A stretch of DNA of 64,000 nucleotides from an uncultured Candidatus Binatia bacterium (lineage in GTDB: Bacteria > Desulfobacterota > Binatia > Bin18): positions 2,941,467 to 3,005,466 of the forward strand of contig OZ242288.1 of assembly GCA_965207575.1 (NCBI GenBank), given 5' to 3'. The first letter of the stretch is position 1, and each line of letters opens with the position of its first letter. The translations under genes were made by a program, and so were the position numbers. Below are positions 8,644 through 26,781 of this stretch, one piece after another. The notes beneath the pieces are model-generated. The model searched no databases. It worked only from the letters and a program-made list of their open reading frames with translations, and was not told the origin of the DNA.

Positions 8644-10911
8644 CTATGCTTGCAGCGTAATCGGCTCAAGCGCATCACCCCGCGCCTGTACGGTGCCGAT
8701 AATAACCGCGTCCTGATAGCCCAGAGCCTGAAGCTCCCGGAGACACGCCTGGGCCTGTTCGGCCGGGACGCTGGCCAGGAGTCCGCCGGCGGTCTGCGGG
8801 TCGAACAGCAGAGCGTAGTACGGATGCCGGGCCGCCCGCTCCCCCTCGCGAATGGCCCGCCGCAGCCGAATATTCTGCGGTTGCAGGGACGAAAAAATGC
8901 CTTGCAGAATGACCTCCAGCGCACCGGGCAGGATCGGCAGCCGTTCCATATCGAGAACCGCGTCAACGGCCGAGGCGCGGACCATTTCGACCAGATGGCC
9001 CAGCAGGCCGAATCCGGTCACGTCGGTCATGGCGGTCGCGCCGTGCTGACGCAGGCAGTCCGCTCCGGCTCGATTTGACTGCCGCATGGAGGCGAGCGCG
9101 GCTTCGATCCAGCGGCCTTTGGCCTTGTGTCGCATGTCTGCGGCAAACAGCGCACCGGTTCCCAGCGCCTTGGTCAGAATCAGGGCTTGTCCCGGCTGCA
9201 TGCCGCTTTTTTTCAGCACGGATTCCTGGCTGGCCAGACCGTTGATGGCGAATCCAAGCGCCAGTTCGCTGCCCTCGCTGGTATGCCCGCCAACCAGGGC
9301 GGTGTGTTCCCGGTTGAGCACCTCCAAGGCCCCGGCCATGAGCTGGGTGAGCTGGTCCTGGACCTTGTGTTCCAGGCCGTACGGGACGGTGACCATGGCC
9401 AGAGCGGTCTGCGGCTCCGCGCCCATGGCAAAGATATCACCCAGGGCATGGGTGGCCGCGATCTGGCCGAAGACAAACGGGTCCTCGATAAAGGCCCGGA
9501 AAAAATCAACGGTTTGTACCAGCGCTTTTCCGGGCGGGACGGTGACTACTGCGGCATCGTCCGGCGCGTGCAGACCGACAATGACATCGGAGCGGTCAAC
9601 CGGCTCAAGGCGTGCCAGGGCCTGGTTGAGGACCGTACTACCGATCTTGGAACCGCAGCCGCCGCACCGCATGGCAAAGGCGGAAACCTCTTTGAGGATC
9701 TGGGCATCGGCCAGTCCCGGCTCTACCTGGGCCGGCTCGTCGTCGGGCATATCCGGCAACTCGTTGTATTTGCGGATAAAGCGCCGGTCGATCCAGTCTT
9801 TCCACTTCCAGACCCACCTCCCCTCACACGCCCAGCGTGAACGCGAGGCCACCGCATATTGGTCTCCGGTAGAGATCAGGCTCAGAAACTGCTTTTGCGG
9901 CGCAAAGGCTTTGACGGGCTGGCCTCGCAGGAAACGGCGCAGATTCTTCGCCAAGGGCGGGCCCTGGCGGACGGCGAACACACCGGATTTTGGGCGGGGA
10001 TGGTTGACGACTGCGGCAATATCCCCGGCGGCAAACACCTCGGGATGGGAAACCGACTGGAGCGTGTCCTGCACGGCGATAAAACCCTGCTCGTCTGTGG
10101 CCAGGCCGGCCTCTCCCGGCCAACCGGCAGCGCCGGCCGTGGTGACCCACAGCATCTCGTCCAGAGCGAGTTGGGTGTCATCGGCAAAACGCACGCACCC
10201 TTCGGCAGCGCCGGTGACGAGACAATCCGTTCGGACCTCGACGCTGCGCTGCTTGAGAATACGCATAAACGCGGCTCGGACACGTGGGTTGTGGGTCGGC
10301 AGAATCTCTGGTGTCCCGCTGATGAGGTAGAAAACGAGATGGTCGGCCGACCGGTTTTGCCGGGCGAGCAGACGTTCGAGGCAGTATTGGACGGCCAGCA
10401 GGAGTTCCACGCTCCCGGCTCCACCGCCGATAACGCCGATTGTCGTGCGGGCGGTCCGGGCCAGACAGCGCTCGCGGAGCTGTTCCCAATGCCGCCAAAA
10501 ACTATCTATGGGCTTGACGGCCACACCGGTGTGCCCGGCCCCGGGGATATGCCCAACAGCCGGTGTGGCCCCGATATTAATGGACAAGGCATCATAGGCC
10601 ACGGGTGGCCGGGTACGACACACCACCTGCTTGTTGGTCAGGTCCAGGCCGATCACTTCATCGTGAAAAAACTGCGCTCCGGCGAACCGGGACAGCGGCC
10701 CAAGATCGATATGGGCCTGATCAAAGCCATAATGCCCGGCGATATAGCCGGGTAACATGCCGGAATACGGCGCGTGCGTATCGCGGCAAATCAGCGTCAC
10801 GCGGACACCCGGCAACGGCTTCATGCCAAAGCGTTTCAGCACGGTGACATGACTGTGGCCACCGCCGATCAGGACCAGATCTTTGACTACCGGAGTGGAT
10901 GTCGGCCTCAC
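8644..10911 (-). CDS. selD: Fusion protein: FAD/NAD(P)-dependent pyridine-nucleotide-disulfide oxidoreductase (NDH-2/SQR-like) N-domain + selenophosphate synthetase SelD (Cys-type) C-domain
   Basis: N-terminus has the Rossmann motif VLIGGGHSH and a second GxGxxG ([12 protein letters not shown]). The C-terminal 350 aa carry the SelD signature [13 protein letters not shown] (compare E. coli GCGCKISPKVL) and the PurM/AIR-synthase-related fold. Confidence 0.8.
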
Positions 10912-10994
10912 AAAAGCGATCCTTCAGTACCGTAGGAACCCACCCCGTCGCCACGCGGCACCCTTCCTAAGAGGAGGGAAAGCACGTCCCGCCG

Positions 10995-13040
10995 CTATTC
11001 ATGCTGCAAAAGGAGATTCCCGCTTACGTCATACTGGACTGTCCAGCCGGGCGGTACAACCACCGTGGTATCTGGTTCTTCTACAATGAGCGGGCCGCTC
11101 CGCGCCTGTTCAAGAGCGGTGCGCTGATAGACCGCGGCCTGGCATTCGCCCACCTGGGGACCGAAATACGCCGTGCGGGAGGCTGGAGACGGAGGGGTGT
11201 TCCCGGTTCCAGTCAGCTCGGTCAGGCGTAGGTGGCCGGAGGAGGCTAGGGCTCGCAGCCGAACGCTGACAAGCTCAATCGTATCGGCTCGATCATAGCC
11301 AAACGCCTGGCGGTGCGCTTCGGTGAAGAGCTGGGCCAGACGGTCCTGCATGTCCGCGACTGATACGTTGGGAAAAGGCAGACTCAGCTCGGCTACCTGA
11401 TAGCCATACTTGAGATCGACCTGGCGCTCAAAACGAATCTGCTCCGCGGCAATCCCTTCGTCGGCCAACTCGACCCGCGCCTGGGTCTCAAGCTCCTGGT
11501 AGTGACGCAGCACGGCCTGCGGATCAAGCTGGTCCAGAGCCACGGCCACGCTACGGATATAGTCGTGGCGATAATCCGCCAAGAGGAGTCCAAACGCGCT
11601 GAACAAGCCTGGGGAGAGCGGAATCTGAACCTGCGTCATACTCAGGCTGTCCGCCAGGGCCGCGGCGTGCATCGGCCCGGCTCCGCCAAATGCGATCAGG
11701 GTAAAGTTACGCGGGTCTCGCCCACGTTCGGTCGAGACGGCCCGCAGGGCGCGCATCATGGTCGCGTTTGCCACCTGGGTGATACCATAGGCCGCGGCCA
11801 GAACTTCCACATTGAGCGGTCGGGCGATTTTTTGCTCAATCGCAGTCCAGGCGGCCCGGCGGTCGATGGCCAGAGTTGCACCAGCGATGGCGTCGGGGTT
11901 CATATAGCCCAGCACGACATTGGCGTCGGTCACGGTCGGCTCGGTTCCGCCCCGGCCATAACAGGCCGGCCCGGGGTCCGCGCTGGCGCTCTGGGGGCCG
12001 ACCCGTAAGGCACCCCCGTCATCTATCCAGGCAATACTACCGCCGCCGGCGCCCACTTCCACGATATCGAGCGAAGGGACGCGGAGCGCATGTCCGCCGC
12101 CGCCGAACAAACGCGTGGTCATGGTTGCACCGCCCCCGATCTCCCCGCCCGGCTTCTCAAGCGGCACGCCGTTTTCGATCAAACAGGCTTTGGCGGTCGT
12201 CCCTCCCATGTCAAACGAGAGCACCTGATCCTGCTGCGTCTCCTGGGCGAAACGCGCCGCAGCCAGCACGCCGGCGGCCGGACCCGACTCGATCATATAC
12301 GCGGGCCGGCGCCGGGCGGCCTGGGCGCTCATAATGCCGCCGTTGGACTGCATAATCAGAACGCGCTCGCTATAGGCCGAGAGGTGCCGTTCCAGTCGAT
12401 CAAGATAGCGGTCAACGACCGGAATCAGGGAGGCGTTAATGACGGTTGTACTGGTGCGTTCGTACTCGCGAATCTCGGGGTGGATATCGTACGACAGACA
12501 CACCACCGTATCCGGAGCCGCTTCAGCGATAAGACGTCCCAACTGCTGTTCGTGCGTGGGATTGAGATAGGAGTTCACCAGGCAGACGGCTATCGTTTCC
12601 ACTCCGGCGGCCAGAAGCTGATCAATCACCGCTCGGGCCTGTATCGGATCGAGCGCACGCTCAATACGGCCGTTGCCCAGAATGCGCTCCTGGACTTCCA
12701 AACGCAGGGAACGGGGCACGAGAGGCGGCAGGCGGTCCCAGTCCGCGTCATAGATATTGGGCCGCCGCTGCCCGCGCATTTCAAGTTCGTCCCGAAATCC
12801 CTGGGTGGTAATCAGTCCGGTCCGCGCGGTGGTCTCTTCGATGACGGCGTTTGAGGCAATGGTCGTGCCGTGGACGAAGCCCTCGACCTGGGCCCGCGCA
12901 TCGACCTCATTGACGCAGCGGACGATATCTTCGCCCACCTGATCGAGCAGCGAGAGGACCTTCGTGGTGAACAGGCGTCCGTCGTCGCCAACCACAATAA
13001 CGTCGGTGAAGGTTCCGCCAATATCAAAGCCTATACGCAT
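10995..13040 (-). CDS. hyuA: Hydantoinase/oxoprolinase A subunit (HyuA family), paralog 1
   Basis: MRIGFDIGGTFTDVIVV... N-terminus; 681 aa Hydantoinase_A family. Confidence 0.85.
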   Translation of the reverse strand: MRIGFDIGGTFTDVIVVGDDGRLFTTKVLSLLDQVGEDIVRCVNEVDARAQVEGFVHGTTIASNAVIEETTARTGLITTQGFRDELEMRGQRRPNIYDADWDRLPPLVPRSLRLEVQERILGNGRIERALDPIQARAVIDQLLAAGVETIAVCLVNSYLNPTHEQQLGRLIAEAAPDTVVCLSYDIHPEIREYERTSTTVINASLIPVVDRYLDRLERHLSAYSERVLIMQSNGGIMSAQAARRRPAYMIESGPAAGVLAAARFAQETQQDQVLSFDMGGTTAKACLIENGVPLEKPGGEIGGGATMTTRLFGGGGHALRVPSLDIVEVGAGGGSIAWIDDGGALRVGPQSASADPGPACYGRGGTEPTVTDANVVLGYMNPDAIAGATLAIDRRAAWTAIEQKIARPLNVEVLAAAYGITQVANATMMRALRAVSTERGRDPRNFTLIAFGGAGPMHAAALADSLSMTQVQIPLSPGLFSAFGLLLADYRHDYIRSVAVALDQLDPQAVLRHYQELETQARVELADEGIAAEQIRFERQVDLKYGYQVAELSLPFPNVSVADMQDRLAQLFTEAHRQAFGYDRADTIELVSVRLRALASSGHLRLTELTGTGNTPPSPASRTAYFGPQVGECQAAVYQRTALEQARSGPLIVEEPDTTVVVPPGWTVQYDVSGNLLLQHE

Positions 13041-13124
13041 GTCTTCATCCGTTCAGATCAGAAGATCGCAGTGGCCGGGCGAGGGCCACCAAAGAAGAGT
13101 GAGTCTGAAGCATCCGGTCCGTGA

Positions 13125-14867
13125 CTAGTCTGCTGCCGCAACCGGTTGCAAGCGGGTGGCTCGCAGAGCCTCGGTTTCCGGCGTATTCACCGCAGCCGCG
13201 TCCGTATCAATCACCACCCCATACTGATCTCGCGCCTGGGCGACGGACAGCTTTTCGTCCTGCACGTCGGCCAGCACCTGGGCGGGGTCGCGCTCCAGGG
13301 GATTGCCGTGTCCGCCCGAGCCGGACACGATGTGGTGAATGCGATCGCCCGGCTTGACGTCCATATGCAGATGGGCTTTGCGCGGCAGTTCCCGACCCTC
13401 GGCTTCTGGATTCAGAATGTTTTTGGACAGCGAGCCGGGCGCGCCACCGGCCAGCCCCCCGGAGGCCCGAATGAGACGGTTGGTGCGAACCATGACTTTT
13501 CCGGGGCTCAGGAAACGCCACTGTTTATAGATGGACACCGAGCCCCGGTGCTTGCCGGCGCCGCCCGTATCCGGCACATAGCCAAACCCGTCAACGACCA
13601 GCGGGAATTCACGTTCGAGCAGTTCCGCCGGAATGGTTCCGTACGACCCGAAGGCCATGGGCGCCACGCCATCAATCCCGTCCTTGCGCGGCCGTCCGCC
13701 CCAGCCGCCAAAGAAAATATCCATGACCGCAAACGGTGTCCCGTCTTCCTTCTCACCAGTAAAGTGCAACACGTCCCCACCCTCTCCGGGGATGGGCACC
13801 CGGTCGGGCAACGCCTGGGCCAGGGCACGAAACAGCATGTCAAAAACCCGAAAGAATAAGGGCGCGCGGCCACCGACCGCGGCCGGAAAGCGCGGGTTTA
13901 CCAGGGTACCGAGTGGCGCAACGATCTGTATGGGCCGAATAAAGCCGACGTTGGTTAACACCTCAGGGCTGACAATGCTCTTGACCGCGCCATAGACCGT
14001 CGCTTCCGTCATGCTCAGCGGCAGGTTGATCGCCCCGCGCGCCTGTGGACCGGTGCCGGTGAAATCAACGCTCAGGGTTTCGCCCTGTGCGCGCAGGGTC
14101 ACCTTGATCGGCAGGGCTACACCGTCGGAGCCAAAACCATCGTCCTCAAAGGCGTCCTCATACACATACTCGCCCGGAGGAATCTCCTTGATGGCCGCCC
14201 GAGTGGCCTTTTCCGCATAGGCAATCAAATAGTCACAGCACGAGCTGAACGTATCCAGGCCGTATTTTTCGAGCAGACGTTTCAGTTCCTGCTCGCCACG
14301 CCAGCAGCCCGCGATTTTTGCCTCCACGTCTCCGAGCCATTCGTCGGATACCCGGACGTTGGCCAGAATCGTCTCCAGGAGGGCTGCGTTGCGCTCCCCG
14401 GCCTTGTACAGTTTGATCGGCGGCAGGCGGAGCCCTTCTTCGAAGGTTTCCGTACACTGGCTGCTGAACCCGCCCGGAAAGCGCCCGCCAATATCGGTGT
14501 GGTGCGAATAGGCCAAGGTAAAGGCGACCCGCCGCCCCTGCCAGAACGTGGGCGCAATGATCATTACGTCCGGCATATGGGTGACACCGGCATACGGATC
14601 GTTCACCACAATGATATCGCCGGGCGCGAAGTCCTCCCCGTATTTTTTGAGGATGTGCGGCATCACCGCAATAAAGAAGGCCAGTTGAAACGGAGCCGCA
14701 TAGCCCTGGCCGATTAACCGGCCCCGGCCGTCGCAGATAGCGGTGGCAAAATCTCCGGTCTTGACCATGGCCGAGCGGCCGGTTTTCCACACCGCAATCG
14801 CCATTTCTTCGGTAATGGCGGCCAACTCGTTTTTCACAACCTCAACCAGAATAGGATCAAATGCCAT
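13125..14867 (-). CDS. hyuB: Hydantoinase/oxoprolinase B subunit (HyuB family), paralog 1
   Basis: MAFDPILVEVVKNEL... ; 580 aa Hydantoinase_B family. Confidence 0.85.
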   Translation of the reverse strand: MAFDPILVEVVKNELAAITEEMAIAVWKTGRSAMVKTGDFATAICDGRGRLIGQGYAAPFQLAFFIAVMPHILKKYGEDFAPGDIIVVNDPYAGVTHMPDVMIIAPTFWQGRRVAFTLAYSHHTDIGGRFPGGFSSQCTETFEEGLRLPPIKLYKAGERNAALLETILANVRVSDEWLGDVEAKIAGCWRGEQELKRLLEKYGLDTFSSCCDYLIAYAEKATRAAIKEIPPGEYVYEDAFEDDGFGSDGVALPIKVTLRAQGETLSVDFTGTGPQARGAINLPLSMTEATVYGAVKSIVSPEVLTNVGFIRPIQIVAPLGTLVNPRFPAAVGGRAPLFFRVFDMLFRALAQALPDRVPIPGEGGDVLHFTGEKEDGTPFAVMDIFFGGWGGRPRKDGIDGVAPMAFGSYGTIPAELLEREFPLVVDGFGYVPDTGGAGKHRGSVSIYKQWRFLSPGKVMVRTNRLIRASGGLAGGAPGSLSKNILNPEAEGRELPRKAHLHMDVKPGDRIHHIVSGSGGHGNPLERDPAQVLADVQDEKLSVAQARDQYGVVIDTDAAAVNTPETEALRATRLQPVAAAD

Positions 14868-14915: not shown

Positions 14916-16661
14916 TCAGGTCCTCAGCTCGGACCGCAGTGTTGCCCGGAGTTGCGCCGTCCGCTGCCAGTCAACCTGCTCCGTGCTCTGGTCAATGGCG
15001 ACCCCGTATTCCCGCTCGGCGTACGCGGCTGAGATTTTCTCGTCCAACACATCGTCCAGGACGAGCCGGGGGTCACGCGAGAGCGGGTCGCCATAACCGC
15101 CCGCACCCGGTTGGACATGCAGCAGGGTTTCTCCGGATCGTACTGCGGTATCGATGAGCATTTCGTGTGGGAGTGGGGTTTCTACCTCGCCGGAGCGCAG
15201 CCTGGCATCAAACGGGGTGCCGTCTTTTCCGCCGGCCAGCCCATACGGAACGGATTTGACTCGACAGGTTCGGAGCATTACCCGGCCGTCGCCCAGAAAG
15301 CGCCATTTCCGGTACACGGACAGGGCCCCACGGTATTGACCCGGACCGCCGGTATCCGGCAAAAAGCCAAAGCCGTCCAGCATGACCGGACATTCGCGCT
15401 CGATCATTTCCGCTGGAATGCTGCGCATGGCGCCGCCGGCAGCCATGGGGGTGACGCCTTCCACCCCGTCGCTATCGGGCCGCGCGCCCCAGCCCGAGGT
15501 GTAAATATCCAGCAGCATGGACGGCACGCCCGCCTCGACCTGGGGCGTATACACCAGCAAATTCGCCCCACCCTCGCCCGCGGCGTAGACCTTGTCGGGA
15601 ATGGCCTGGGCCAGGGCGGCAAAGATCATGTCGATAATCCGCCACATCAGCATCCCGCGCGCGCCGACCGCGCCGGGGAATTGCGGATTGACCACGCAGC
15701 CCTCGGGAGCAGTCACCTGAATGGGGGCCATCAGCCCCGAGTTTGCCGGCGCATCCGTCTCAAGAATGGACCGAAAGGCCACGTACACACAGGCACGGGT
15801 GAGATTAAAGGGAACGTTGATCGCGCTGCGGACCTGGGGGCCGGTGCCGTCAAAGTCCACCCGGACGGACTCGCCGGCAACGGTCACCGTGAGACGCAGG
15901 TTGACCCCCTCCCCGCCCAAGCCGTCATCTTCAAACAGATCCGTACACGCATATGAGCCGTCCGGGATGGCGGCAATACAGGACCGCATGGCCCGCTCGC
16001 TGTACTGGCGCAGTTGTTCGTTACAGGCTGCAAATTGTTCCAGCCCGTGGCGGTCGAGCAGCTCCCGGACTCCCTGGGCACCACGCCGGCAGGCCGCGGC
16101 CTGGGCGTCCAGGTCGCCGCGTACATCCTCAGGTGCCCGGACGTTGGCGGCAACCATATCGACCAGATCGTGATTCAGCTCACCCTTGCTGAAGAGCTTG
16201 ACTCCCGGAATACACACCCCTTCTTCGTAGACTTCGGCACAGGCTATGCCCATGCCACCGGGGAAGCGGCCGCCAATATCGGTGTGGTGTTCTACGATGG
16301 CCGCAAAGCCGACCAGTTGTTCCTGCCAGAAAATCGGCATGATCAGAACGATGTCCGGGAAGTGAGACACCCCGCCGTAGGGGTCGTTTGAGACAATCAC
16401 ATCGCCGGGGTGGAGGTCGTCGCCAAATTTCTTCAGCACCCACGGCATGACCCCCATGATGTAGCCCAGGTGGACGCCGATGGTCAGGCCCTGGGCGATC
16501 AACCGGCCCTGGGCATCAACCAGCGCGGTGGAAAAATCAGAGCCTTCCTTGGCCCCCAGCGAGCGCGCCGTCCGCTTCATGGTAATGCCCATTTCTTCGG
16601 CGACTGCGGTCAGCTCGTTTTTCATGACTTCGATAAGAATGGGGTCAAATGCAGTTGGCAT
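14916..16661 (-). CDS. hyuB: Hydantoinase/oxoprolinase B subunit (HyuB family), paralog 2
   Basis: MPTAFDPILIEVMKNEL... ; 581 aa. Confidence 0.85.
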   Translation of the reverse strand: MPTAFDPILIEVMKNELTAVAEEMGITMKRTARSLGAKEGSDFSTALVDAQGRLIAQGLTIGVHLGYIMGVMPWVLKKFGDDLHPGDVIVSNDPYGGVSHFPDIVLIMPIFWQEQLVGFAAIVEHHTDIGGRFPGGMGIACAEVYEEGVCIPGVKLFSKGELNHDLVDMVAANVRAPEDVRGDLDAQAAACRRGAQGVRELLDRHGLEQFAACNEQLRQYSERAMRSCIAAIPDGSYACTDLFEDDGLGGEGVNLRLTVTVAGESVRVDFDGTGPQVRSAINVPFNLTRACVYVAFRSILETDAPANSGLMAPIQVTAPEGCVVNPQFPGAVGARGMLMWRIIDMIFAALAQAIPDKVYAAGEGGANLLVYTPQVEAGVPSMLLDIYTSGWGARPDSDGVEGVTPMAAGGAMRSIPAEMIERECPVMLDGFGFLPDTGGPGQYRGALSVYRKWRFLGDGRVMLRTCRVKSVPYGLAGGKDGTPFDARLRSGEVETPLPHEMLIDTAVRSGETLLHVQPGAGGYGDPLSRDPRLVLDDVLDEKISAAYAEREYGVAIDQSTEQVDWQRTAQLRATLRSELRT

Positions 16662-16685: not shown

Positions 16686-16916
16686 TTATGCGGCTGGAAG
16701 TTCGCGTACGTGCAAAATTTCTCGCTCTCGCATAAGGCGAACGTCGGATGGAGTCAGCGTTAGTAGTGCTATCGTCTTCCCTTCCGCTGTCACAAACTCA
16801 ACCTCAAGCCCTTGACCATCCTGGTAGCAATGCACCACAACGCCGATATCGCCTTCCTTGAGCCCATGATTTTCAACATCATGAGTAAGAACGACCGTAT
16901 CAAGCTCTTGGAACAT
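16686..16916 (-). CDS. DUF4926-family small protein
   Basis: 76 aa; ELDxVxLTxDxxxHxLKxGDIGxVV...YEVEF pattern typical of DUF4926. Confidence 0.55.
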   Translation of the reverse strand: MFQELDTVVLTHDVENHGLKEGDIGVVVHCYQDGQGLEVEFVTAEGKTIALLTLTPSDVRLMREREILHVRELPAA

Positions 16917-16938: not shown

Positions 16939-17271
16939 CTATAACGGGTAGGCAGTGACAAAGCGAGGATTATTCCGTTGTCCTTCAACAATCCAAACAG
17001 TACGAATACGGACTTTCCTCTTTGTCTTTGTTTCCAGTGCCCCTTCAATGACGTATTTTATTCCATGAGTTGATCGCGAGACACTTGTCACCTCGTTAGT
17101 ACGGGCAAAGGTTAAGAGTTGCTGCTTGAGGTCTTCCTCTCCAGCTACACTAAAACCAATCGCCTGAAAGAACTTAGACTTTGCTTTGCCAACCGCATGC
17201 GTAGGAGAGAGTAGGTATCTTGATAATTTCCCTTGGGGAATGTAGGCGTTGCGTCGATTGGGTAATTTCAC
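16939..17271 (-). CDS. DUF6883-family protein
   Basis: 110 aa; MKLPN... N-terminus and ...IRTVWxVxxGxxxPRFVTAYPL C-terminus as in DUF6883. Start overlaps the hyuA2 stop (ATGA). Confidence 0.5.
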   Translation of the reverse strand: MKLPNRRNAYIPQGKLSRYLLSPTHAVGKAKSKFFQAIGFSVAGEEDLKQQLLTFARTNEVTSVSRSTHGIKYVIEGALETKTKRKVRIRTVWIVEGQRNNPRFVTAYPL

Positions 17272-19364
17272 TTCACTACCTGCAAGACAATATTCCCATA
17301 CGCATCGACACTCGCCTGCCAGCGCGGCGGGACTACAACCGTGGTGTCAAACTCTTCGACAATCAGGGGACCGGCGACAGTCTGTTCGAGCAGGTCCCCT
17401 CGGCTCAGAATCCGGGTATCGAGCTCACCCTGCTGCGGGCCGAAATACGCGCGTCGAGAGCCCAACTGAGTTGCCTTTTTTGCCGATTGACCGAAATACC
17501 CGCCCAATTCGCTGAAGGACAGACTAGGCGTTCGGACGGTTGCCTTCAGGCGAACGCTGACGATGGCAATAGTATCGTCCTCACGGCGATATCCATACGT
17601 TTGTTCATGCGCGGCGTGAAAGCTTTCGGCCAGCACCTGCCTTATGTCAGCGGCCTCAACCTGAGCCGGAACCGTCAGGGTCAGTTCCGACGACTGGCGC
17701 TGGTAGCGTAAGTCGATCAGGCGTTCATAGGTGAGACCGTCCTGCTCACGCTGCTCATTATGAGCATCCTGCTTCGCACGGGCCACCAGCGTGTCAAATT
17801 CCTGGAGCAGAGTCGTGGGATCAACAGTCTCCAGCTCCTGCGGCACGCTCTGCACATAGTCGGAGCGCAGGTCGGCCACCAACAGGCCCAGCGCGCTGAA
17901 CACCCCAGGGAAAAGCGGAATATACACCCGCGACATACCCAGATTATCGGCCAGCGTCGCCGCGTGCAGCGGGCCTGACCCTCCGAAAGCGATCAGAGTG
18001 AACTCACGAGGATCACGGCCCCGCTCGGTCGTGACCGCGCGTATGGCGCGCGTCATGGTCGCGTCAGCCACCTGATGAATCCCAAAGGCAAGCTCGTGAA
18101 CCGACAGACCGAGACGTGCACCCAGCCGTGTCTGTATGGCGGTCTGCGCGGCAGTGGCATCAATGGGGACGGTCCCACCGGCGATGCTGGCCGGGTTCAT
18201 ATATCCCAGGACCACGTTGGCGTCGGTGATGGTCGGTTCGATTCCGCCCCGGCCATAGCAGGCCGGTCCGGGGACGGCACCCGCGCTACGGGGTCCGACG
18301 CGCAGCGCGCCACCGTCGTCTACCCAGGCCAGGCTGCCGCCTCCCGCACCGACCTCGACAATATCGTAGGCGGGAACGCGCAGTGCATAGCCGGCACCCT
18401 TGCTCAGCCGCCCAGCCCGGTTAATACCCGCCCCAACCTCGCCTTCGGCGGTTTCAACCGGCTGGCCATTTTCGATCAGGCAACCTTTGGCGGTCGTCCC
18501 GCCCATATCAAACGCGACCGCCTGAGCCAGACCGATTTCCCGCGCCAGGCCGGCCGCGGCCAGGGCACCGGCCGCAGGACCGGATTCGATCAGGTGCACC
18601 GGGCGGTGACGGGCGTGCGCGGCGCTCATGATCCCCCCGTTGGACTGCATGATTTGCAGGGCTGGAGGATAGGCCTGGAGCTGCGTTTCCACCTGGTCCA
18701 GATAACGTCCGACTACGGGCATGAGGTAGGCGTTCAGCGCCGTGGTGGAGGTACGTTCGTACTCGCGAACCTCGGGCAGGATGTCGGCCGAGGAGCAGAC
18801 CAGGACTTCCGGGAATATCTCGCGGATCAGAGCCACGGTCTGTTGCTCATGGCTGGGATTGACGTAGGAATGCAGAAACGCCACGGCAATGGCTTCGACA
18901 CCCTGGCGTTTGAGGCTGAGTATGGCCTGACGCACCTCTTCGTCGTTGAGCGGCGTCTCGACCTCGCCCCGAACGGTCATGCGTTCGCTGACTTCAAGTC
19001 GGCGGCGACGTGGGATCAGGGGCGGCGTACGCTGCCAGAACACGTTGTAGACACTCGGACGTCCCAGGCGGCGGATTTCCAATTCGTCCCGAAAGCCTTT
19101 AGTGGTAATCAGACCGGTTCGGGCGCCCTGTTCTTCCAGGACCGCGTTGGAAGCGATGGTCGTGCCGTGGACGAGACTCGCAATGGAACTCTCCGGGTGC
19201 TGGCGTTCGGCATCGGCAATACAGCGTCCAACGTCTGCGCCAACAGAATCGGGCAGGGTCAAAATTTTATAGGTCAGGAGTTGGCCGGCGGCACCGGCTA
19301 TGACGACATCGGTGAAGGTTCCGCCAATGTCAAAGGCAACGCGAAGGCTGGCCGGAGTAGACAT
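17268..19364 (-). CDS. hyuA: Hydantoinase/oxoprolinase A subunit (HyuA family), paralog 2
   Basis: MSTPASLRVAFDIGGTFTDVVIAG... ; 698 aa. Confidence 0.85.
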   Translation of the reverse strand: MSTPASLRVAFDIGGTFTDVVIAGAAGQLLTYKILTLPDSVGADVGRCIADAERQHPESSIASLVHGTTIASNAVLEEQGARTGLITTKGFRDELEIRRLGRPSVYNVFWQRTPPLIPRRRRLEVSERMTVRGEVETPLNDEEVRQAILSLKRQGVEAIAVAFLHSYVNPSHEQQTVALIREIFPEVLVCSSADILPEVREYERTSTTALNAYLMPVVGRYLDQVETQLQAYPPALQIMQSNGGIMSAAHARHRPVHLIESGPAAGALAAAGLAREIGLAQAVAFDMGGTTAKGCLIENGQPVETAEGEVGAGINRAGRLSKGAGYALRVPAYDIVEVGAGGGSLAWVDDGGALRVGPRSAGAVPGPACYGRGGIEPTITDANVVLGYMNPASIAGGTVPIDATAAQTAIQTRLGARLGLSVHELAFGIHQVADATMTRAIRAVTTERGRDPREFTLIAFGGSGPLHAATLADNLGMSRVYIPLFPGVFSALGLLVADLRSDYVQSVPQELETVDPTTLLQEFDTLVARAKQDAHNEQREQDGLTYERLIDLRYQRQSSELTLTVPAQVEAADIRQVLAESFHAAHEQTYGYRREDDTIAIVSVRLKATVRTPSLSFSELGGYFGQSAKKATQLGSRRAYFGPQQGELDTRILSRGDLLEQTVAGPLIVEEFDTTVVVPPRWQASVDAYGNIVLQVVK

Positions 19365-19413: not shown

Positions 19414-19815
19414 TCAAGCCTTGAGCAGAGCAAAGGCCTCAATCTCAATGAGCAGGTCTTCAAGCACCAGCGCCTGAACGCCGATGAGGGTGCTGGCCGG
19501 TGCTTTTTCCTGGGGCAGATACTGGCTGCGAACCTCACGGACCACGCCGATCATGTCAGGCGTATAATTAACAATATACGTATTGGTCTTCAGCACGTCG
19601 TCAAACGTGGCCCCAACCGCGGCCAGCGCCCCTTTGAGGTTTTCAAAGGTCTGGACGACCTGGGCGCGCAGGTCGCCCTTGCCCACCACCGCGTTGTTCG
19701 CGTCCAAGGCGACCTGGCCCGAGATGAAAACAATTTTTCCCTCGGTTGCGGTCACCACCTGAGAGAAGCCCGGCAAAACGGGCAGACCGGCGGGATTCAG
19801 GAATTCCTTTTCCAT
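19414..19815 (-). CDS. RidA/YjgF-family reactive-intermediate deaminase
   Basis: 133 aa; YjgF/RidA family sequence. Confidence 0.75.
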   Translation of the reverse strand: MEKEFLNPAGLPVLPGFSQVVTATEGKIVFISGQVALDANNAVVGKGDLRAQVVQTFENLKGALAAVGATFDDVLKTNTYIVNYTPDMIGVVREVRSQYLPQEKAPASTLIGVQALVLEDLLIEIEAFALLKA

Positions 19816-19865: not shown

Positions 19866-20948
19866 TCAGGGCCGCACTTCATAATAGGCGTTGAACGGAT
19901 TGTCAAAGTCGTGGCGGGTGAAGCGGGTGAACCCGGCGTCGCGCGTCATGCTCCGCGCCACCTGTTCGTTAAAGCCCAGGGTACCCAGGCCGGCGCCGTC
20001 CGGCTCGGATAAGGCCGAGGACATGCAGCCCATCACCGAGAAGGCATACATCAAACCGGTCATGGGGTTCTTCAGATTTTCCTCAAACGTCGGGGCGCTC
20101 TTAATATCGGCGATCAGCCAGGTTCCATCCGGCTTGAGCGCCGACCGGATAGCCCGAATGGCTTCCGCCGGATGAGTCATATCGTGGATGCAGTCAAACG
20201 TGGTGATGAAGTCAAAACTCGCATCGGCCGGCAGCCCGTCCTGGGCCGCGTGATGAAACCGGAGGTTGGTCAGCCCGGCCTCAGCCTTGTTGGCATTGGC
20301 GCGGGCCAGCGCGTGCTCCGATATGTCATAGCCGTGAAAGTCGGCCTGCGGAAAGGCTGCAGCCATTTGAACCAGCGCAATCCCGGCGCCGCAGCCCACG
20401 TCCGCCACCTTTGCGCCGACTTGCAGTCTGGACTCGACCCCGTCCAGGGCGGGCAGCACAATGGGGATCAGCGCGTGCCGGTACCAGGGGGCAAAGACCC
20501 GCTCGATGCCCCGTGCGCCTTCCGGCCCACGCGCGTCGTAGGGGAGACCCAGGCCGCTACGAAAGGCCTCGGGCAGTTTCTCCAATATGGCCATGCGTTG
20601 CGGAAAATCGCTGAAAATACCGGCGGCAAACTTGGGACTGTCCTCGTCCGCAAGAATCATGGCCATTTCAGGCGAGAGGGAAAAGCGTTCCTCCCCCGCA
20701 TACTCAAGCAACTGGGCCGCGGCCTGCCCTCTCAACCACTCCCGCACCCAGCGCTCACTCAAGCCTGTTTTGTTGGCCAACTCCTCGCTCGTCACCGGCC
20801 CGGCACCGTGCAAGGCCCGGTACAATCCGAGTTGGTCGCCCAGGTGAATCATGGCCGAGATTAAGGCGCCGCTCAGCAGGCCAAAGACTTTTTGACCGCC
20901 GGCCTTGAGTTTGTCCGGGTCTATATGGTCACGAGACGGTTGATCCAC
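19866..20948 (-). CDS. Class I SAM-dependent methyltransferase with N-terminal winged-helix/dimerisation domain
   Basis: SAM motif I VADVGCGAGIAL; N-terminal HTH-like segment as in O-methyltransferase-type proteins. Confidence 0.65.
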   Translation of the reverse strand: MDQPSRDHIDPDKLKAGGQKVFGLLSGALISAMIHLGDQLGLYRALHGAGPVTSEELANKTGLSERWVREWLRGQAAAQLLEYAGEERFSLSPEMAMILADEDSPKFAAGIFSDFPQRMAILEKLPEAFRSGLGLPYDARGPEGARGIERVFAPWYRHALIPIVLPALDGVESRLQVGAKVADVGCGAGIALVQMAAAFPQADFHGYDISEHALARANANKAEAGLTNLRFHHAAQDGLPADASFDFITTFDCIHDMTHPAEAIRAIRSALKPDGTWLIADIKSAPTFEENLKNPMTGLMYAFSVMGCMSSALSEPDGAGLGTLGFNEQVARSMTRDAGFTRFTRHDFDNPFNAYYEVRP

Positions 20949-20973: not shown

Positions 20974-21420
20974 CTACATCCCGCTGATCAACTCAAGAAT
21001 GGTTCCGTCCGGGTCCTTAAAGCAGACGACCCCAATCTCCGCGCCTCCGGGTCCGTCGATTTTTTTGAGGGGGGCTAAGAATTCAACCTGCATTTCCTGG
21101 AGGTCGGCATAGGTCTTGTCGATATCGTCCACGTCGAAGGCAATACGACAGATCCCGATGTTATTGAGCGACGGGTAAGGCTCGCCCTGCGGGGGCGGAT
21201 CGATAAACTGGACCAGGTCCAGGACCGGAGCGTTCTCATCGTCTCCGAGACGCATAAACACGCCACGCAGCTTCCGGGCGTCGAGGCCAAGCGCCTCACC
21301 GACGGTCGGGTCTTCAAGCGTAAAGTCGTTGACCTTGTTAAACCCGAGCTTCTCATAAAACCCAATGGACCGCTCCATATCGCGGACACAGACGTTGACG
21401 TGAAATAAACGAGTCAGCAT
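20974..21420 (-). CDS. VOC-family (glyoxalase/bleomycin-resistance/dioxygenase) protein
   Basis: 148 aa; beta-alpha-beta-beta-beta VOC pattern. Confidence 0.7.
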   Translation of the reverse strand: MLTRLFHVNVCVRDMERSIGFYEKLGFNKVNDFTLEDPTVGEALGLDARKLRGVFMRLGDDENAPVLDLVQFIDPPPQGEPYPSLNNIGICRIAFDVDDIDKTYADLQEMQVEFLAPLKKIDGPGGAEIGVVCFKDPDGTILELISGM

Positions 21421-21462
21421 GTTCCCCTCCTTTAGTTTAGAGTTCTGACGACATCACTGTAG

Positions 21463-21489
21463 GTCGGATTAACGCAGTGTAATCCGACA
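21463..21489. repeat. Hairpin GTCGGATTA-N9-TAATCCGAC immediately 3' of D-aminoacylase 1
   Basis: Near-identical copy lies immediately 3' of D-aminoacylase 2 (35280-35305). Confidence 0.5.
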
Positions 21490-23258: not shown

Positions 23259-23274
23259 GACTCCTCCTTGTTGT

Positions 23275-23340
23275 GGGGGTTAGGGGCTAGGGGTTGGGGG
23301 TTGGATTTGTTCATCCCTAACCCCCAACCCCTAGCCCCCA
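23275..23340. promoter_or_regulatory. 56-nt perfect palindromic G-rich hairpin with G-quadruplex-capable GGGGTTAGGGGCTAGGGGTTGGGGG motif, between the CoA-transferase and D-aminoacylase genes, just 5' of the aminoacylase ribosome-binding site
   Basis: Arms 23283-23302 and 23319-23338 are perfectly complementary (20 bp). The loop itself contains GGAT/ATCC pairing. Confidence 0.6.
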
Positions 23341-23351
23341 GTCCCTCATTC

Positions 23352-24656
23352 TTAAATTACTCCTTCGTCCTGAAACGCGTCCATTTCTGCCTGGCTCAAG
23401 CCGAGCAATTCTTTATAGACATATTCATTATCTTCCGCATAGCACGGCGCAGCGCGTTCGGTCGGTCCGCCCTGATTCACCAGCCCGTTGGCAAAATGAA
23501 ACGGAATATTCTTGATCGGCCAGGTTCCGATCTCGCTGTGCTCCAGGGGCAGCAGCCAGTTCAGGTGTTTGAGCTGCGGGTCGCGTTCGATCCGGTCCTG
23601 CGCGGTCTGACACACGCCGGCAGGAACGCCAGCGGCCTGTAAACGTTCTTGCAGGCCAAAGGGCTCCTGCTCCTGCGTCCAGGCGCTCACCAGTCGGTCC
23701 AACTCGTCCTGATGTTGCAGCCGCTCGACCGGCGAGGCAAACCGCTCCTGGGCCGCCCAGTCGGGGTTGCCCATGATGCGGACCAGGGCTTGCCATTCTT
23801 CTTCGGACGTGACGGCGATGGCAATCCAGCGATCATCGCCGGCGCAGGGATAGGCGCCGTGCGGGGCCGCGGGTGTATAGGGCGAACGATTGCCCGTACG
23901 CTGATAGTGGCGGCCATTGACCGCGTGATCCAGCACCGCGGTGCCGGTCATGCCAATGCCGGGTTCTACTTGCGAGCAGTCCAGGTACTGGCCCTTGCCC
24001 GTCCGTTTTTTATAGTACAGGGCCATGAGAATGGTCATGGCACAATAATACGCGCCACTCCAATCCATATACGAAAATCCCCAGCCGGCAGGAGGATGGG
24101 GGGCGGGCAAACCGGACTGTTCGGTCAGGCCACTCACGGCCTGGGCAATTGGTCCGTAGGAAGCGTATTTCACGTAGGGACCTTTATAGCCCCAACCGGG
24201 CTGCTGCATATAAATAATATCCGGCTTAATGGCTTTGAGGGTGTCATAACCGAGCCCCCATTTTTGCATGGTCTCGGCCGTAAAGGCCTCAACGACCACA
24301 TCACTGACCGCAACTAGCTTTTTGAACAGCTCGCGGCCCTGGGGCGCTTTCATATTCAGACTGATCCCATATTTACCGGCATTGATATCGTTAAAATACC
24401 CACCACGATTGACGCTTTGGATCTTGCCGGTATCCAGGCCGGTCAGGTCCATGGCCCCGGCCTTTTCGGTCGACTCTTTCGTGCGGGAGGCAAACGGCGG
24501 CATATAGCGCAGAAAATCCAGCCGATCGCGCCATTCAATGCGAATGACTTCCGCCCCCAGGCTGGCCAATAAGCGCGGCCCGCCCGCCCCGGCCAGCAGC
24601 CAGGTCAGGTCTGCAATCCGCACACCTTCCAAAGGTCTTCTTTTTTTCACGCCCAC
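23352..24656 (-). CDS. CoA-transferase family III (CaiB/BaiF) protein, subunit 1
   Basis: 434 aa; CaiB/BaiF family sequence with the conserved Asp-containing active-site region. Confidence 0.8.
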   Translation of the reverse strand: MGVKKRRPLEGVRIADLTWLLAGAGGPRLLASLGAEVIRIEWRDRLDFLRYMPPFASRTKESTEKAGAMDLTGLDTGKIQSVNRGGYFNDINAGKYGISLNMKAPQGRELFKKLVAVSDVVVEAFTAETMQKWGLGYDTLKAIKPDIIYMQQPGWGYKGPYVKYASYGPIAQAVSGLTEQSGLPAPHPPAGWGFSYMDWSGAYYCAMTILMALYYKKRTGKGQYLDCSQVEPGIGMTGTAVLDHAVNGRHYQRTGNRSPYTPAAPHGAYPCAGDDRWIAIAVTSEEEWQALVRIMGNPDWAAQERFASPVERLQHQDELDRLVSAWTQEQEPFGLQERLQAAGVPAGVCQTAQDRIERDPQLKHLNWLLPLEHSEIGTWPIKNIPFHFANGLVNQGGPTERAAPCYAEDNEYVYKELLGLSQAEMDAFQDEGVI

Positions 24657-24657
24657 C

Positions 24658-25932
24658 CTACACGATTCCTTTGTCCTGCAAGTCCGCCACCTCTTCCGCG
24701 CTCAACCCAAGCTGCTCACACAAGACCTCCCGGTTGTGCTCACCGATGAGCGGTGCCCGCGGGCCTTGCCGCCAGGCACATTGATTCGGCAGCATGGGCG
24801 CGCCCGTATAGGTGTAGGACTCGCCCAACTCGGAATGCTCAACCTGAGAAAACGTGGCGCGGGTTTGCCACTGCACATCGTCGGGATTTTCCTCCGGCAG
24901 TCGAATGGGCGACCAGGGAATGCCGAGTTCCTGGGCCTCATGCCAGATTTCTTCCATGTCAAAATCGGCTACGCACGCCGCCTGGATGTCGGCAAAATGC
25001 TCGGTAAAGGCGCGTCCCCGGCGATTCTTGGGCTCTTTATATTTGTCTTCGGTCAGGTCGCCGGCCTTGCCCTTACTCTCCAGGAATCCAGCCAGGGTTT
25101 CATATCCGCCCGGAAACGGGTTGGGCAAAATAATGGCATAGCGCTCGTCTTTGGTCGGGAACTGCACCTCAGATCCAATGGCCGGTTGGGCATGCCGTCC
25201 CGTCTGGCGGTAGCACGGCGTCTGGCCATAAATCCAGTGCGGGACATCGATCTCGGTGCAGACGCTGACGGCCTGGTGAATAGGCAGCTCAATCATCTCT
25301 CCGACTTCGGTCATCTCACGCCCAATCAGCGCGCCGACAGTGGCAATAAAGGCCTGGTTGCCGGCGATGTGATAGGCGTGCCACATCTGCGGGGCGATGG
25401 GTGGAGTGTCATAGCTGCCGTCGTCGGTGGGGCTGTAGCCGCAACACATCATTTGCCCGCCCAACGCCAGATGGACCAGATCGTTGGCCTTATAGTCACG
25501 CCACGGACCACTGTTGCCAAACGGAGACAGGACCACATAAATCAATCGCGGATTGAGCGCCTGCAGGGCGTTCCAACTCAGCCCGAGTTTTTCCAGCGTG
25601 CCCGGCGGCTGGGTATCAATCAGGACGTCTGCCTCCGTAATGAGCTGCTTGAGCAGGTCCGTTCCCGGCGGCGACTCGATATCGAGCGTCATGCCGCGCT
25701 TGCCGAAATTATAGTGCCAAAAATACAGGCTGCGCTCGGGGTGGACCTGGTCGTGATAAAAGGGCCCGATCTCACGCGTGGCTTGCCCGCCCGGCGGCTC
25801 GATTTTGAGCACATCCGCGCCCGCCCCGGCCAGCAGCTTGCCGCAGAACTCTCCCTTTTCATCTGCGAGTTCCAGGACTTTGACATCAAACAGAAATCCA
25901 TCCATACCGCTGTCCCCAGGAAGGAGGGCCAA
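24658..25932 (-). CDS. CoA-transferase family III (CaiB/BaiF) protein, subunit 2
   Basis: 424 aa; CaiB/BaiF family. Directly abuts the paralog, suggesting a heteromeric family-III transferase. Confidence 0.8.
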   Translation of the reverse strand: MALLPGDSGMDGFLFDVKVLELADEKGEFCGKLLAGAGADVLKIEPPGGQATREIGPFYHDQVHPERSLYFWHYNFGKRGMTLDIESPPGTDLLKQLITEADVLIDTQPPGTLEKLGLSWNALQALNPRLIYVVLSPFGNSGPWRDYKANDLVHLALGGQMMCCGYSPTDDGSYDTPPIAPQMWHAYHIAGNQAFIATVGALIGREMTEVGEMIELPIHQAVSVCTEIDVPHWIYGQTPCYRQTGRHAQPAIGSEVQFPTKDERYAIILPNPFPGGYETLAGFLESKGKAGDLTEDKYKEPKNRRGRAFTEHFADIQAACVADFDMEEIWHEAQELGIPWSPIRLPEENPDDVQWQTRATFSQVEHSELGESYTYTGAPMLPNQCAWRQGPRAPLIGEHNREVLCEQLGLSAEEVADLQDKGIV

Positions 25933-26052
25933 TGGCCCTCCCCTCCTTTGTTCCTAGGGTTCCCCGAAGTCCTCGTGCGGCGCACTGACCGCACAGAGGG
26001 TGTCAGGAAGAGATGGGTCGAGGCACTGGAGTCTGCTGTACCGCATACGATC

Positions 26053-26781
26053 TCAGCTCGTCAGCTCTCGTGAGAGCGCGAAATCTTTGCCGTCCTGTGC
26101 CGCGACCAGAGCCGGTGTCTGCTGGGAGTCACTCTCAAGAATCCCCAGGGCGATCGACTTTAAGGGCTCCAGATACTCGTCGAGCTTGGTAAAGCTGCTG
26201 AGCGCCCAATGCCGCACCGCCCAAGACTGGGCCAGCACCAATAAACAGTGGGCTTTAAGTCGAATATTCCCGTCCGGAAATACCCCCTGGGCGATCCCAT
26301 AGGCAATAATCTCCTCGAAAAAATGCTGAATTCGTTCTTCGCCCTCGAGAAAGCGCTTGCGTTCCGTCAACGTCAGCGACTTTGTTTCCTGATAGGCTAG
26401 GACGGTGTTGCGCCGCAATTCATCGGTCAGCGCGGCGTACTGCTCGTAGGCCCGCAAAAACAAATCCTGCGGACTGGCGCCATCCCGCTTGAGCCGCTCA
26501 AACTCGGCTCGCTGTTTTTGAAACCCGGCCTCGGCTCGAGCTTGGCCGGAGGAGAGCAGAAAAAAGAGAATTTCTTCCTTACTGGTAAAGTAGTTGAAAA
26601 CCGAACCCACGCTGAGCCCGGCTTTTTGGGCAATCTCACGGACGCTGGTGTTGTGATAGCCGTTCTGGAGAAAGAGATTGAGCGCCGCGGTGGCAATGCG
26701 TTCCTGGCCTTCTTGCAACCGCTTTTCGTCGGTCACCTGAGACGGGGATTTGCGTTTTTTGCGTAAGACCTGAGATTTCAC
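26053..26781 (-). CDS. TetR-family transcriptional regulator
   Basis: N-terminal HTH LFLQNGYHNTSVREIAQKAGLSVGSVFNYF typical of TetR. Confidence 0.8.
   Translation of the reverse strand: MKSQVLRKKRKSPSQVTDEKRLQEGQERIATAALNLFLQNGYHNTSVREIAQKAGLSVGSVFNYFTSKEEILFFLLSSGQARAEAGFQKQRAEFERLKRDGASPQDLFLRAYEQYAALTDELRRNTVLAYQETKSLTLTERKRFLEGEERIQHFFEEIIAYGIAQGVFPDGNIRLKAHCLLVLAQSWAVRHWALSSFTKLDEYLEPLKSIALGILESDSQQTPALVAAQDGKDFALSRELTS

Follow-up and report, generated by a model that had tools for sequence, protein, structure and literature searches.

A candidate amide-degrading cassette at the core of an apparently mosaic gene island in uncultured Candidatus Binatia

The HyuA subunits of hydantoinase-type enzymes carry two phosphate-binding motifs, P1 and P2, as defined in PMC8453981. 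Two described systems that contain such enzymes are among the closest to the locus considered here: the hyuABC genes of Pseudomonas sp. NS671, which convert 5-substituted hydantoins to L-amino acids (PMC8453981), and the iaa operon, in which a HyuAB-like hydrolase is paired with an arylsuccinate family III coenzyme A (CoA)-transferase (PMC8453981, PMC8360864). Hydantoinase-type and family III CoA-transferase genes occur in a 64-kb stretch of DNA from an uncultured Candidatus Binatia bacterium (hereafter the window), on whose minus strand 14 open reading frames (ORFs) run in the same direction from position 26781 to 8644, with junctions ranging from a 4-bp overlap to a gap of 155 nt. A preliminary description had reported fourteen co-directional genes with small gaps, all of which were found where it placed them, and the family names that it gave are all borne out by Pfam and NCBIfam. 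It had further taken these genes for a single pathway unit headed by TetR. Comparison with related genomes shows otherwise: the 18-kb run is no single unit and is best read as a mosaic built around one conserved Binatia cassette. This cassette has the form [PuuE-like deacetylase]-[Amh561]-TetR-CaiBa/CaiBb-Amh560-VOC-methyltransferase-Rid-HyuB1(-HyuA1), where Amh560 and Amh561 are amidohydrolases and CaiBa and CaiBb are CoA-transferase subunits, and the coordinates 8644-26781 cut through a larger island.

The relatives were gathered by scanning a methyltransferase alignment against one genome per species, which gave 80 loci, and by comparing all proteins of the window by tblastn with these loci and with contexts fetched via CaiBb homologues; about 30 loci proved to be related. 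The 11 closest (methyltransferase 94-96% identical) are all Candidatus Binatia metagenome-assembled genomes (MAGs) with chromosomes of ~4-5 Mb, and such close relatives have the layout of the window. In the 16 distant relatives, defined by a methyltransferase identity of 71-82% and counted hereafter only where a locus is assessable, the order TetR-CaiBa-CaiBb-Amh560-VOC-methyltransferase-Rid-hyuB1 is kept, each gene being present in 75-92% of the assessable loci (TetR 10/11, CaiBa 11/12, CaiBb 12/13, Amh560 13/15, VOC 14/16, Rid 12/16, hyuB1 12/14). Across this range the identity of the core proteins falls to about 65-80%, and that of Rid and TetR to as low as 57-66%. The genes lying 3' of hyuB1 or hyuA1 vary from locus to locus. 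hyuA1 itself is found in four of the 11 assessable distant relatives (L020, L022, L031, L032), hyuA2 in two of 12 (L022 and L023), hyuB2 in two of 10, hyuA3 and hyuB3 in two of 11 each, and SelD in one of eight. Because gene order is conserved in related genomes, the arrangement goes beyond chance for a part of the run, and for that part only. The notion of a single 14-gene unit breaks down at the remaining genes, with the hyuA2-hyuB2 pair confined to two of about 12 distant relatives, the DUF6883/DUF4926 pair varying between strains and SelD unlinked outside the lineage of the window and L022. At still greater distances the association dissolves. CaiBb homologues with at most 68% identity keep only CaiBa of the cluster partners, and the methyltransferase homologues at or below 67% keep none; the 55 loci of the latter kind show unrelated contexts without a consistent partner, their neighbours being generic genes of acyl-CoA and lipid metabolism (SDR, ECH, ACAD, AMP-ligase, AKR). 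In the plasmid collection only homologues with at most 36% (Amh560) or 50% (CaiBb) identity were found, in unrelated contexts.

TetR had been seen as the start of the cluster, and here too the relatives differ: Amh561 and the PuuE-like deacetylase stand upstream of it as conserved genes. PuuE-like gene, Amh561 and TetR are contiguous in L004, L018 and L032, while L002 and L023 have only Amh561 at this place and L022 only the PuuE-like gene. In the window both lie 8 kb away from TetR, with the block from hyuA3 to the racemase in between; they are partners of the core that belong upstream of it and have been displaced. From the close relative L018 (OY729511.1) the block is absent except for a 138-aa remnant of hyuA3. 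With the block missing and the PuuE-like gene, Amh561 and TetR contiguous in this genome, the hyuA3-racemase block is therefore a separable module. Its four genes, hyuA3, hyuB3, amidase and racemase, are contiguous in L001; in the window, UPF0150, SnoaL_4 and HigB/HTH genes interrupt it between hyuB3 and the M20 amidase. The hyuA2-hyuB2 pair is likewise a lineage-specific paralogous insertion, and it has in turn been entered by other genes. DUF6883 and DUF4926 have a GC content of 45% and 50%, respectively, against ~62% for their neighbours, and they occur in 4/12 and 7/12 close relatives; where they are missing, hyuA2 is followed by hyuB2 after 14 nt (L018) or immediately (L022). The DUF pair is therefore a foreign insertion that splits a hyuA2-hyuB2 operon.

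The core has also taken up genes in other lineages. A luciferase-like monooxygenase lies between VOC and the methyltransferase in six loci (L023, L025, L026, L028, L031, L033); it has no orthologue in the window, where only paralogues of 22-31% identity were found. A thiamine diphosphate (ThDP) enzyme of the OXC/HACL family lies between TetR and CaiBa, directly in front of the transferase genes, in seven loci (L002, L004, L005, L026, L027, L029, L031), six of them distinct as L004 and L005 are near-identical. It scores 384 bits against HACL/HACS structures vs 297 and 253 bits against true oxalyl-CoA decarboxylases. Duplications are seen as well, of Amh560 in L004 and L026 and of the methyltransferase in L029, L031 and L032. 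The features of the window are collected in Table 1.

Table 1. Genes and intergenic elements of the Binatia island, with positions in the window
Feature	Position	Strand	Remarks
TetR-family regulator	26053-26781	-	TetR_N + TetR_C_24
CaiBa, CoA_transf_3 (PF02515)	24658-25932	-	BbsE-like, predicted non-catalytic subunit
CaiBb, CoA_transf_3 (PF02515)	23352-24656	-	BbsF-like, predicted catalytic subunit
Amh560, Amidohydro_3, 560 aa	21576-23258	-	D-aminoacylase-subfamily metallo-amidohydrolase
VOC/glyoxalase-fold protein	20974-21420	-	PF00903; subgroup uncharacterised
SAM methyltransferase	19866-20948	-	N-terminal Rv2258c-type winged helix (wHTH)
Rid-family protein, Ribonuc_L-PSP	19414-19815	-	Ser in place of Arg105
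hyuA2, Hydantoinase_A	17268-19364	-	ATP-binding subunit of paralogous hydantoinase/lactamase pair
DUF6883 ORF	16939-17271	-	PF21814; first half of mobile two-gene insertion
DUF4926 ORF	16686-16916	-	PF16277; second half of mobile two-gene insertion
hyuB2, Hydantoinase_B	14916-16661	-	543 bits; hyuA2 partner
hyuB1, Hydantoinase_B	13125-14867	-	Core gene
hyuA1, Hydantoinase_A	10995-13040	-	hyuB1 partner, variably retained
Pyr_redox_2 + SelD fusion	8644-10911	-	Neighbour gene, outside cassette
Amh561, second amidohydrolase, 561 aa	35313-36998	-	Displaced upstream partner of core
PuuE-like polysaccharide-deacetylase-fold protein	37362-38402	-	Displaced upstream partner of core
hyuA3	26913-28991	+	Divergent from tetR
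hyuB3	28931-30790	+	Divergent block
M20 hydantoinase/carbamoylase-type amidase	32778-34025	+	TIGR01879 337 bits vs cutoff 204
Asp/Glu/hydantoin racemase	34022-34756	+	Asp_Glu_race 194 bits
tetR promoter-like element	26844-26873	-	TTGACA (26873-26868), 18-nt spacer, TATGAG (26849-26844)
Candidate TetR operator	26822-26838	-	AATGAACACTCACTCAG; imperfect inverted repeat just 3' of -10
Structured leader, TetR-CaiBa spacer	25940-26012	-	Inner stem-loop 25971-25999
Stem-loop CaiBb-Amh560	23274-23345	-	27-nt arms of GGGGYTR heptamers

The genes of the two CoA-transferase subunits are separated by a single nucleotide and stay together in all homologous loci, including L006-L008. The best PDB match of CaiBa is one chain of the benzylsuccinate CoA-transferase (9fn0_A, 148 bits), and that of CaiBb is the other (9fn0_B, 221 bits). 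In an alignment that includes YfdE, Asp198 of CaiBb falls on the catalytic Asp169 of E. coli Frc, and CaiBa has Tyr187 in this column; the tyrosine is present in all close orthologues, with Ser in L008. The same column holds Asp in 9fn0_B and Tyr in 9fn0_A, so the likeness to BbsEF that had been noticed at the outset holds up both in the separate best matches of the two subunits and in the Asp/Tyr split. On the plasmid NZ_CP050953.1 of Rhodococcus sp. DMU1 (L092), one ORF of 852 aa annotated as a "CoA transferase" (7738-10296) spans the CaiBb match; it is long enough for both subunits and appears to be a natural CaiBa-CaiBb fusion, and its neighbours are thiolase, enoyl-CoA hydratase, phytanoyl-CoA dioxygenase and cupin genes. 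Because the Asp/Tyr split is that of the Bbs chains and a single Rhodococcus ORF appears to combine the two subunits, this evidence supports the prediction that CaiBa and CaiBb function only as a heterodimer, in which all active sites are of one kind. An identity as formyl-CoA transferase (Frc) was rejected: the two proteins score 145 and 158 bits with TIGR03253, against a cutoff of 504, and CaiBb lacks the GGGGQ glycine loop in the alignment.

Both ATP-binding motifs, P1 (DxGGTxTD) and P2 (DxGGT), are present in all three HyuA proteins of the window (DIGGTFTD and DMGGT in hyuA2), each of which has a Hydantoinase_B partner. This agrees with their earlier reading as putative ATP-dependent ring-opening enzymes. 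The pairs hyuA1/hyuA2 and hyuB1/hyuB2 are 56% and 48% identical, vs 35-39% in comparisons with hyuA3/hyuB3. The hyuB1 orthologues are 75-83% identical, and the gene stands directly after that of Rid wherever the hyuA2-hyuB2 pair is missing. Its product best matches an N-methylhydantoinase (7hk5, 255 bits) and caprolactamase (6yra, 235 bits) in the PDB. Two more specific identities were discarded. For acetone or acetophenone carboxylase, hyuB1 gives 52 bits with the acetone carboxylase alpha subunit and 144 with Apc delta, and the Apc equivalogs remain far below their cutoffs; for the caprolactamase CapAB (NF050156/NF050157), the scores of the six Hyu subunits lie between 282 and 552 bits, under the cutoff of 1000. 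As to the divergent block at 26913-34756, it contains by family all four components of an NS671-type hyuABCE system, with activities that are predicted from sequence; Watabe et al. are said to have described hyuE in 1992 as the racemase of the NS671 system.

The amidohydrolases are more distant from their characterised relatives. Amh560 matches the D-aminoacylase 1m7j with 128 bits over only the N-terminal ~195 and the C-terminal ~185 residues. Its PHTH, GNCG and SDG segments align with SHTH, GNCG and SDG of that enzyme, and the HxH, Cys and Asp motifs are thus kept; the metal and catalytic motifs of 1m7j are HxH, Cys96 and Asp366. His220 and His250 of 1m7j fall in the unaligned middle part. 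The best NCBIfam match of Amh560, PRK09061, reaches 98 bits against a cutoff of 340, and the protein is 48% identical to Amh561. The PuuE-like protein has a TIGR03212 domain at 111 bits vs a cutoff of 425. The cluster shows no specific link to D-amino acids, and the part of the preliminary description that linked it to them falls away. Of 8,000 candidates for the Amh560 family, 7,983 were matched at E <= 1e-60, the best 120 being at least 83% identical; judged from the size of this family, environmental metagenomes appear to contain the cassette commonly.

Two further proteins of the core, Rid and VOC, depart from the families in which they are placed. RidA enzymes require Arg105 (E. coli RidA/TdcF numbering) to hydrolyse imines (PMC4433059). 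In an alignment with E. coli RidA and RutC, the Rid protein of the window and its counterparts in L001, L002, L004 and L022 have Ser at this position ("PAST" vs "PARS"), as does every cluster Rid orthologue, and the protein scores 60 bits with TIGR00004, whose cutoff is 106. Its proposed role as an imine deaminase is unsupported because the essential arginine is replaced by Ser. Methylmalonyl-CoA epimerase was rejected as the identity of the VOC protein: the match is 24 bits to the PDB structure and 37 bits to TIGR03081, far below the curated cutoff of 115, and an Arg (GICRIAF) is aligned with the metal-ligand His of the epimerase (GVHHIAF). The methyltransferase is matched in the PDB by 5f8c (Rv2258c, 206 bits) and TnmJ (189 bits). 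More generally, no catabolic enzyme of the run attains any curated NCBIfam equivalog cutoff.

The head of the cassette carries conserved noncoding elements. Both hexamers of the promoter-like element of tetR are kept in all 22 loci compared (TetR identity 65-100%); the -35 hexamer overlaps with TTGTCA-17-TAGAGT, a promoter-like site on the plus strand directed at hyuA3. The preliminary description had proposed looking for a TetR operator in the divergent region 26782-26912, and a 17-nt candidate is present there. Each of 21 related loci has one copy of its core, ATGAACAYTCAYTCA, and no more, invariably placed upstream of tetR, and the full motif occurs once in the whole window. The promoter is followed by AATGAACAYTCAYTCAG, and both are kept in every lineage compared, whichever gene lies upstream. 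The motif has no second copy in front of CaiBa, as would be expected if the cassette were transcribed from the tetR promoter. TetR itself matches no NCBIfam equivalog.

Between TetR and CaiBa lies a conserved leader whose outer stem can pair CCTCTTCC with the Shine-Dalgarno region of CaiBa; in the consensus fold of 11 sequences, six pairs show compensatory changes, which are seen in the inner stem. This leader could sequester the ribosome-binding site of CaiBa, and it could be a terminator of tetR or a translational control element. No Rfam family was matched at the gathering thresholds anywhere in the window, and the TetR spacers gave nothing meaningful. The 93-nt spacer between CaiBb and Amh560 folds at -59.5 kcal/mol and has no T-run. 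The GGGGYTR sequence of its stem-loop is nearly unique to the strain of the window and L010, and most lineages have a hairpin of different sequence at the site, which points to an element for processing, stabilisation or attenuation within the operon. In L020, L021, L027, L029 and L002, hairpins in the Amh560-VOC spacer are followed by a T-run in the manner of an intrinsic terminator; the hairpins of the window lack T-runs, and a scan for consensus promoters and terminators found no enrichment over shuffles. The TetR leader and the hairpins after CaiBb and Amh560 argue against a simple single transcript. Separately, a 26-nt palindrome, GTCGGATTACnCTnCGnTAATCCGAC, is found at 21463-21488 and 35280-35305, just downstream of Amh560 and Amh561. 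It recurs in a variety of spacers at related Binatia loci and resembles a REP-like family of extragenic palindromes that varies between strains.

The gene content, the modular conservation, the active-site patterns and the conserved tetR promoter with its motif are observed directly. From here we infer a catabolic role, an order of steps, a class of substrate and a control of the downstream genes by TetR. The best-supported reading, which we put at about even odds, is of a catabolic module under the control of TetR whose substrate would be a carboxylic acid rich in amide groups, N-acylated or a cyclic amide; it is attractive because the core is rich in C-N hydrolases and has a CoA-activation step of the substituted-succinate type. 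The ATP-dependent HyuA1B1 would open a lactam or hydantoin-type ring, and the D-aminoacylase-type zinc amidohydrolases and the PuuE-like enzyme would cleave further C-N bonds. The acid product, probably a substituted succinate or a 2-hydroxy acid, would then be converted to its CoA thioester by the BbsEF-type heterodimer, with Asp198 of CaiBb as the presumed catalytic residue and CaiBa as the non-catalytic partner. In the sister lineages, the 2-hydroxyacyl-CoA-lyase-type ThDP enzyme might cleave this thioester to formyl-CoA and a product shorter by one carbon.

Several observations weigh against such a pathway. The core includes no transporter, dehydrogenase or aminotransferase that would complete a route to central metabolism, and the ThDP enzyme is missing from the window, where tblastn showed no remnant of it. 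Key residues known from characterised relatives are missing in VOC and Rid, a methyltransferase is unusual for catabolism, and two or three conserved genes are left unexplained. The strong hairpins behind CaiBb and Amh560 hint that the run is divided into several transcription units, and all relatives are uncultured MAGs. Finally, L002, L004/L005, L026 and L029 end the core with hyuB1 and have no hyuA within 10 kb, which fits poorly with an enzyme that depends on A and B together. To our knowledge, characterised members of the HyuAB family need both subunits; for a lone hyuB1, either the partner is encoded elsewhere or HyuB acts alone.

Other accounts of the locus were weighed against a mosaic with a catabolic core. 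That all 14 genes form one operon for a single cyclic-amide/D-amino-acid catabolic pathway, in which SelD, the DUF pair and both HyuAB pairs are functional, would fit the short spacers between co-directional ORFs (two junctions are 1 nt apart or overlap by 4 nt) and the full order kept in the close Binatia relatives and L022. We regard it as very improbable: the DUF pair is low in GC and strain-variable, most distant relatives have neither hyuA2 nor hyuB2, SelD scores above the cutoffs of the curated selD models and is no longer adjacent in L031, Rid lacks Arg105, conserved partner genes lie outside the interval, strong hairpins follow CaiBb and Amh560, and relatives without most of the periphery are observed. 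What stands of that earlier interpretation is the conserved cluster, the BbsEF-like heteromer, the ATP-binding motifs of the HyuA proteins and a candidate operator in the region named; the single pathway, the RidA deaminase and the D-amino-acid link do not. At the other extreme, the genes might have no functional connection and be neighbours by the shared ancestry of closely related genomes. All core-bearing loci do come from Binatia-like MAGs, so a part of the conservation is vertical inheritance, and the more distant CaiBb and methyltransferase homologues retain CaiBa alone or no partner at all. Yet the core order outlasts the replacement of flanks, accessory genes and even intergenic sequences, it holds where Rid and TetR identities are down to 57-66%, and the head of the cluster retains a single regulatory motif, which makes shared ancestry on its own a quite improbable account.

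Two further proposals concern the chemistry of the core. It might degrade a cyclic ureide (parabanate, oxalurate or an allantoin-type product of purine oxidation) to oxalate, with CaiBa/CaiBb as an oxalate CoA-transferase and the ThDP enzyme as an oxalyl-CoA decarboxylase. The allantoinase fold of the PuuE-like protein with its TIGR03212 domain, the two amidohydrolases, the action of HyuAB enzymes on hydantoin-type rings, the OXC/HACL affiliation of the ThDP enzyme of relatives, the matches of both CoA-transferases to formyl-CoA transferase models and a xanthine/uracil-permease-family gene at 41799-42968 all lend themselves to this proposal. However, the Frc models reach only 145-164 bits against cutoffs of 442-504, CaiBb lacks the GGGGQ loop of Frc, and both transferase subunits are closest to BbsE and BbsF; the ThDP enzyme, besides being missing from the window, is nearer to HACL/HACS than to the OXC of E. 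coli or O. formigenes, and the PuuE-like protein lies far under its cutoff. On this evidence degradation of a ureide is unlikely. Nor does it seem likely that the core is not catabolic and serves the modification or synthesis of a small molecule, in detoxification or tailoring, through the methyltransferase, VOC and CoA-activating enzymes. The resemblance of the methyltransferase to the natural-product enzyme TnmJ and to Rv2258c, its duplication in some relatives, the frequent service of VOC proteins in resistance or tailoring and the lack of an encoded route to central metabolism would be explained in this way. Against it, none of the ~30 loci contains scaffold-forming enzymes (NRPS, PKS, terpene, RiPP), hydrolases prevail, with three or four amide hydrolases, and degradative clusters typically have accessories of the kind seen here (HACL-type lyase, luciferase-like monooxygenase, extra HyuAB).

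The SelD fusion exceeds the cutoffs of TIGR03169 (483 vs 310 bits) and TIGR00476 (308 vs 125) and has the GCGSK motif; it follows hyuA1 only in the lineage of the window and in L022, not in L031, and the spacer between the two genes holds strain-variable palindromes. We regard it as an ordinary adjacent gene for a predicted selenophosphate synthetase, with no evident link to the pathway. Genes of toxin-antitoxin type are found on both sides of the run: a VapBC-like RHH and PIN pair (7793-8449, plus strand) converges on SelD, a UPF0150/HicB-like gene lies at 30970-31254 (minus strand), and a HigB gene with an HTH antitoxin lies at 32005-32690 (plus strand). Together with DUF6883/DUF4926, these make for an unusually high density of such genes in and around the island. 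Further out, at 41008-42968 on the minus strand, a DDE transposase ORF overlaps the start of the 389-aa permease-family ORF by ~20 bp; this transporter gene, a few kilobases from the PuuE-like gene, could be disrupted by the overlap. Among the related loci, the MAG records L021, L022, L023, L029 and L032 are labelled "uncultured Enterobacteriaceae bacterium" or "Klebsiella pneumoniae". They carry the Binatia-type cluster at 71-81% protein identity, and the labels look wrong.

Should the catabolic reading of the core hold, a further, rather tentative proposal follows its lines: an undescribed route, widespread in uncultured soil and groundwater Binatia, in which ATP-dependent cyclic-amide opening and D-aminoacylase-type deacylation would lead to a BbsEF-type CoA-transferase with a single active site and then, in sister lineages, to alpha-oxidation. 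The arginine-less Rid, the atypical VOC and the Rv2258c-like methyltransferase would be new dedicated enzymes of this pathway, possibly along with a HyuB that works without HyuA. The Binatia are an abundant, uncultured group whose sources of carbon and nitrogen are deduced from genomes only. The identity of the substrate would at once assign functions to several little-understood protein subgroups: the Ser105 Rid, the VOC subgroup, the Rv2258c-like methyltransferase and a BbsEF-like transferase that occurs outside anaerobic hydrocarbon metabolism. The locus could also be a source of new ATP-dependent lactam or hydantoin hydrolases for biocatalysis. To a specialist, a conserved cluster of known enzyme families is useful and unsurprising. 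Literature searches on Binatia/Binatota hydantoinases, on the BbsEF structure and on clusters of HACL, CoA-transferase and amidohydrolase genes found no description of the cassette. The earlier statement that it corresponds to no textbook pathway stands insofar as the TetR-hyuB1/hyuA1 cluster matches no characterised pathway or NCBIfam equivalog; it needs qualifying for the iaa precedent and for the NS671-like block.

Set beside these and other known systems, the locus shares parts with each. As in the iaa operon of Aromatoleum aromaticum (IaaCE and the phenylsuccinyl-CoA transferase IaaL), an enzyme of HyuA/HyuB type is combined with a family III CoA-transferase. However, the families of the mutase IaaGH, the acyl-CoA dehydrogenase IaaF and the CoA ligase IaaB are not among the ORFs of 8.6-38.4 kb, and in place of the single protein IaaL the window has a heteromer, accompanied by amidohydrolases, VOC, methyltransferase and Rid. 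With BbsEF it shares two adjacent paralogous subunits of which only the BbsF-like one has the catalytic Asp. The similarity is moderate (148 and 221 bits), though, CaiBb has an insertion of ~19 residues, and neither bbs-type beta-oxidation genes nor bss-type genes for benzylsuccinate synthase were found among the ORFs across 1-45.7 kb. The two-subunit architecture, the Pfam domains and the P1/P2 motifs are those of hydantoinase, N-methylhydantoinase and caprolactamase (HyuAB/CapAB), whereas here three divergent pairs share one locus, their scores come to about half the caprolactamase cutoff, and several relatives have hyuB1 without hyuA. Amh560 has the Amidohydro_3 fold and the HxH/Cys/Asp motifs of D-aminoacylase and N-acyl-D-glutamate deacylase (1m7j, 3gip), but it is 76 residues longer, aligns in part and matches no curated family. 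The hyuA3-hyuB3-M20 amidase-racemase block agrees with hyuABC(E) of NS671 in its four predicted functions and in their order, a likeness of composition; in contrast to that system, it is interrupted by toxin-antitoxin and SnoaL genes, lies outside 8644-26781, and has an M20 protein under the closest equivalog cutoff (449 vs 508 bits). Relative to all of these, the novelty lies in how known enzyme families are combined, in a way that is undescribed and is conserved within an uncultured lineage, and in the mosaic structure.

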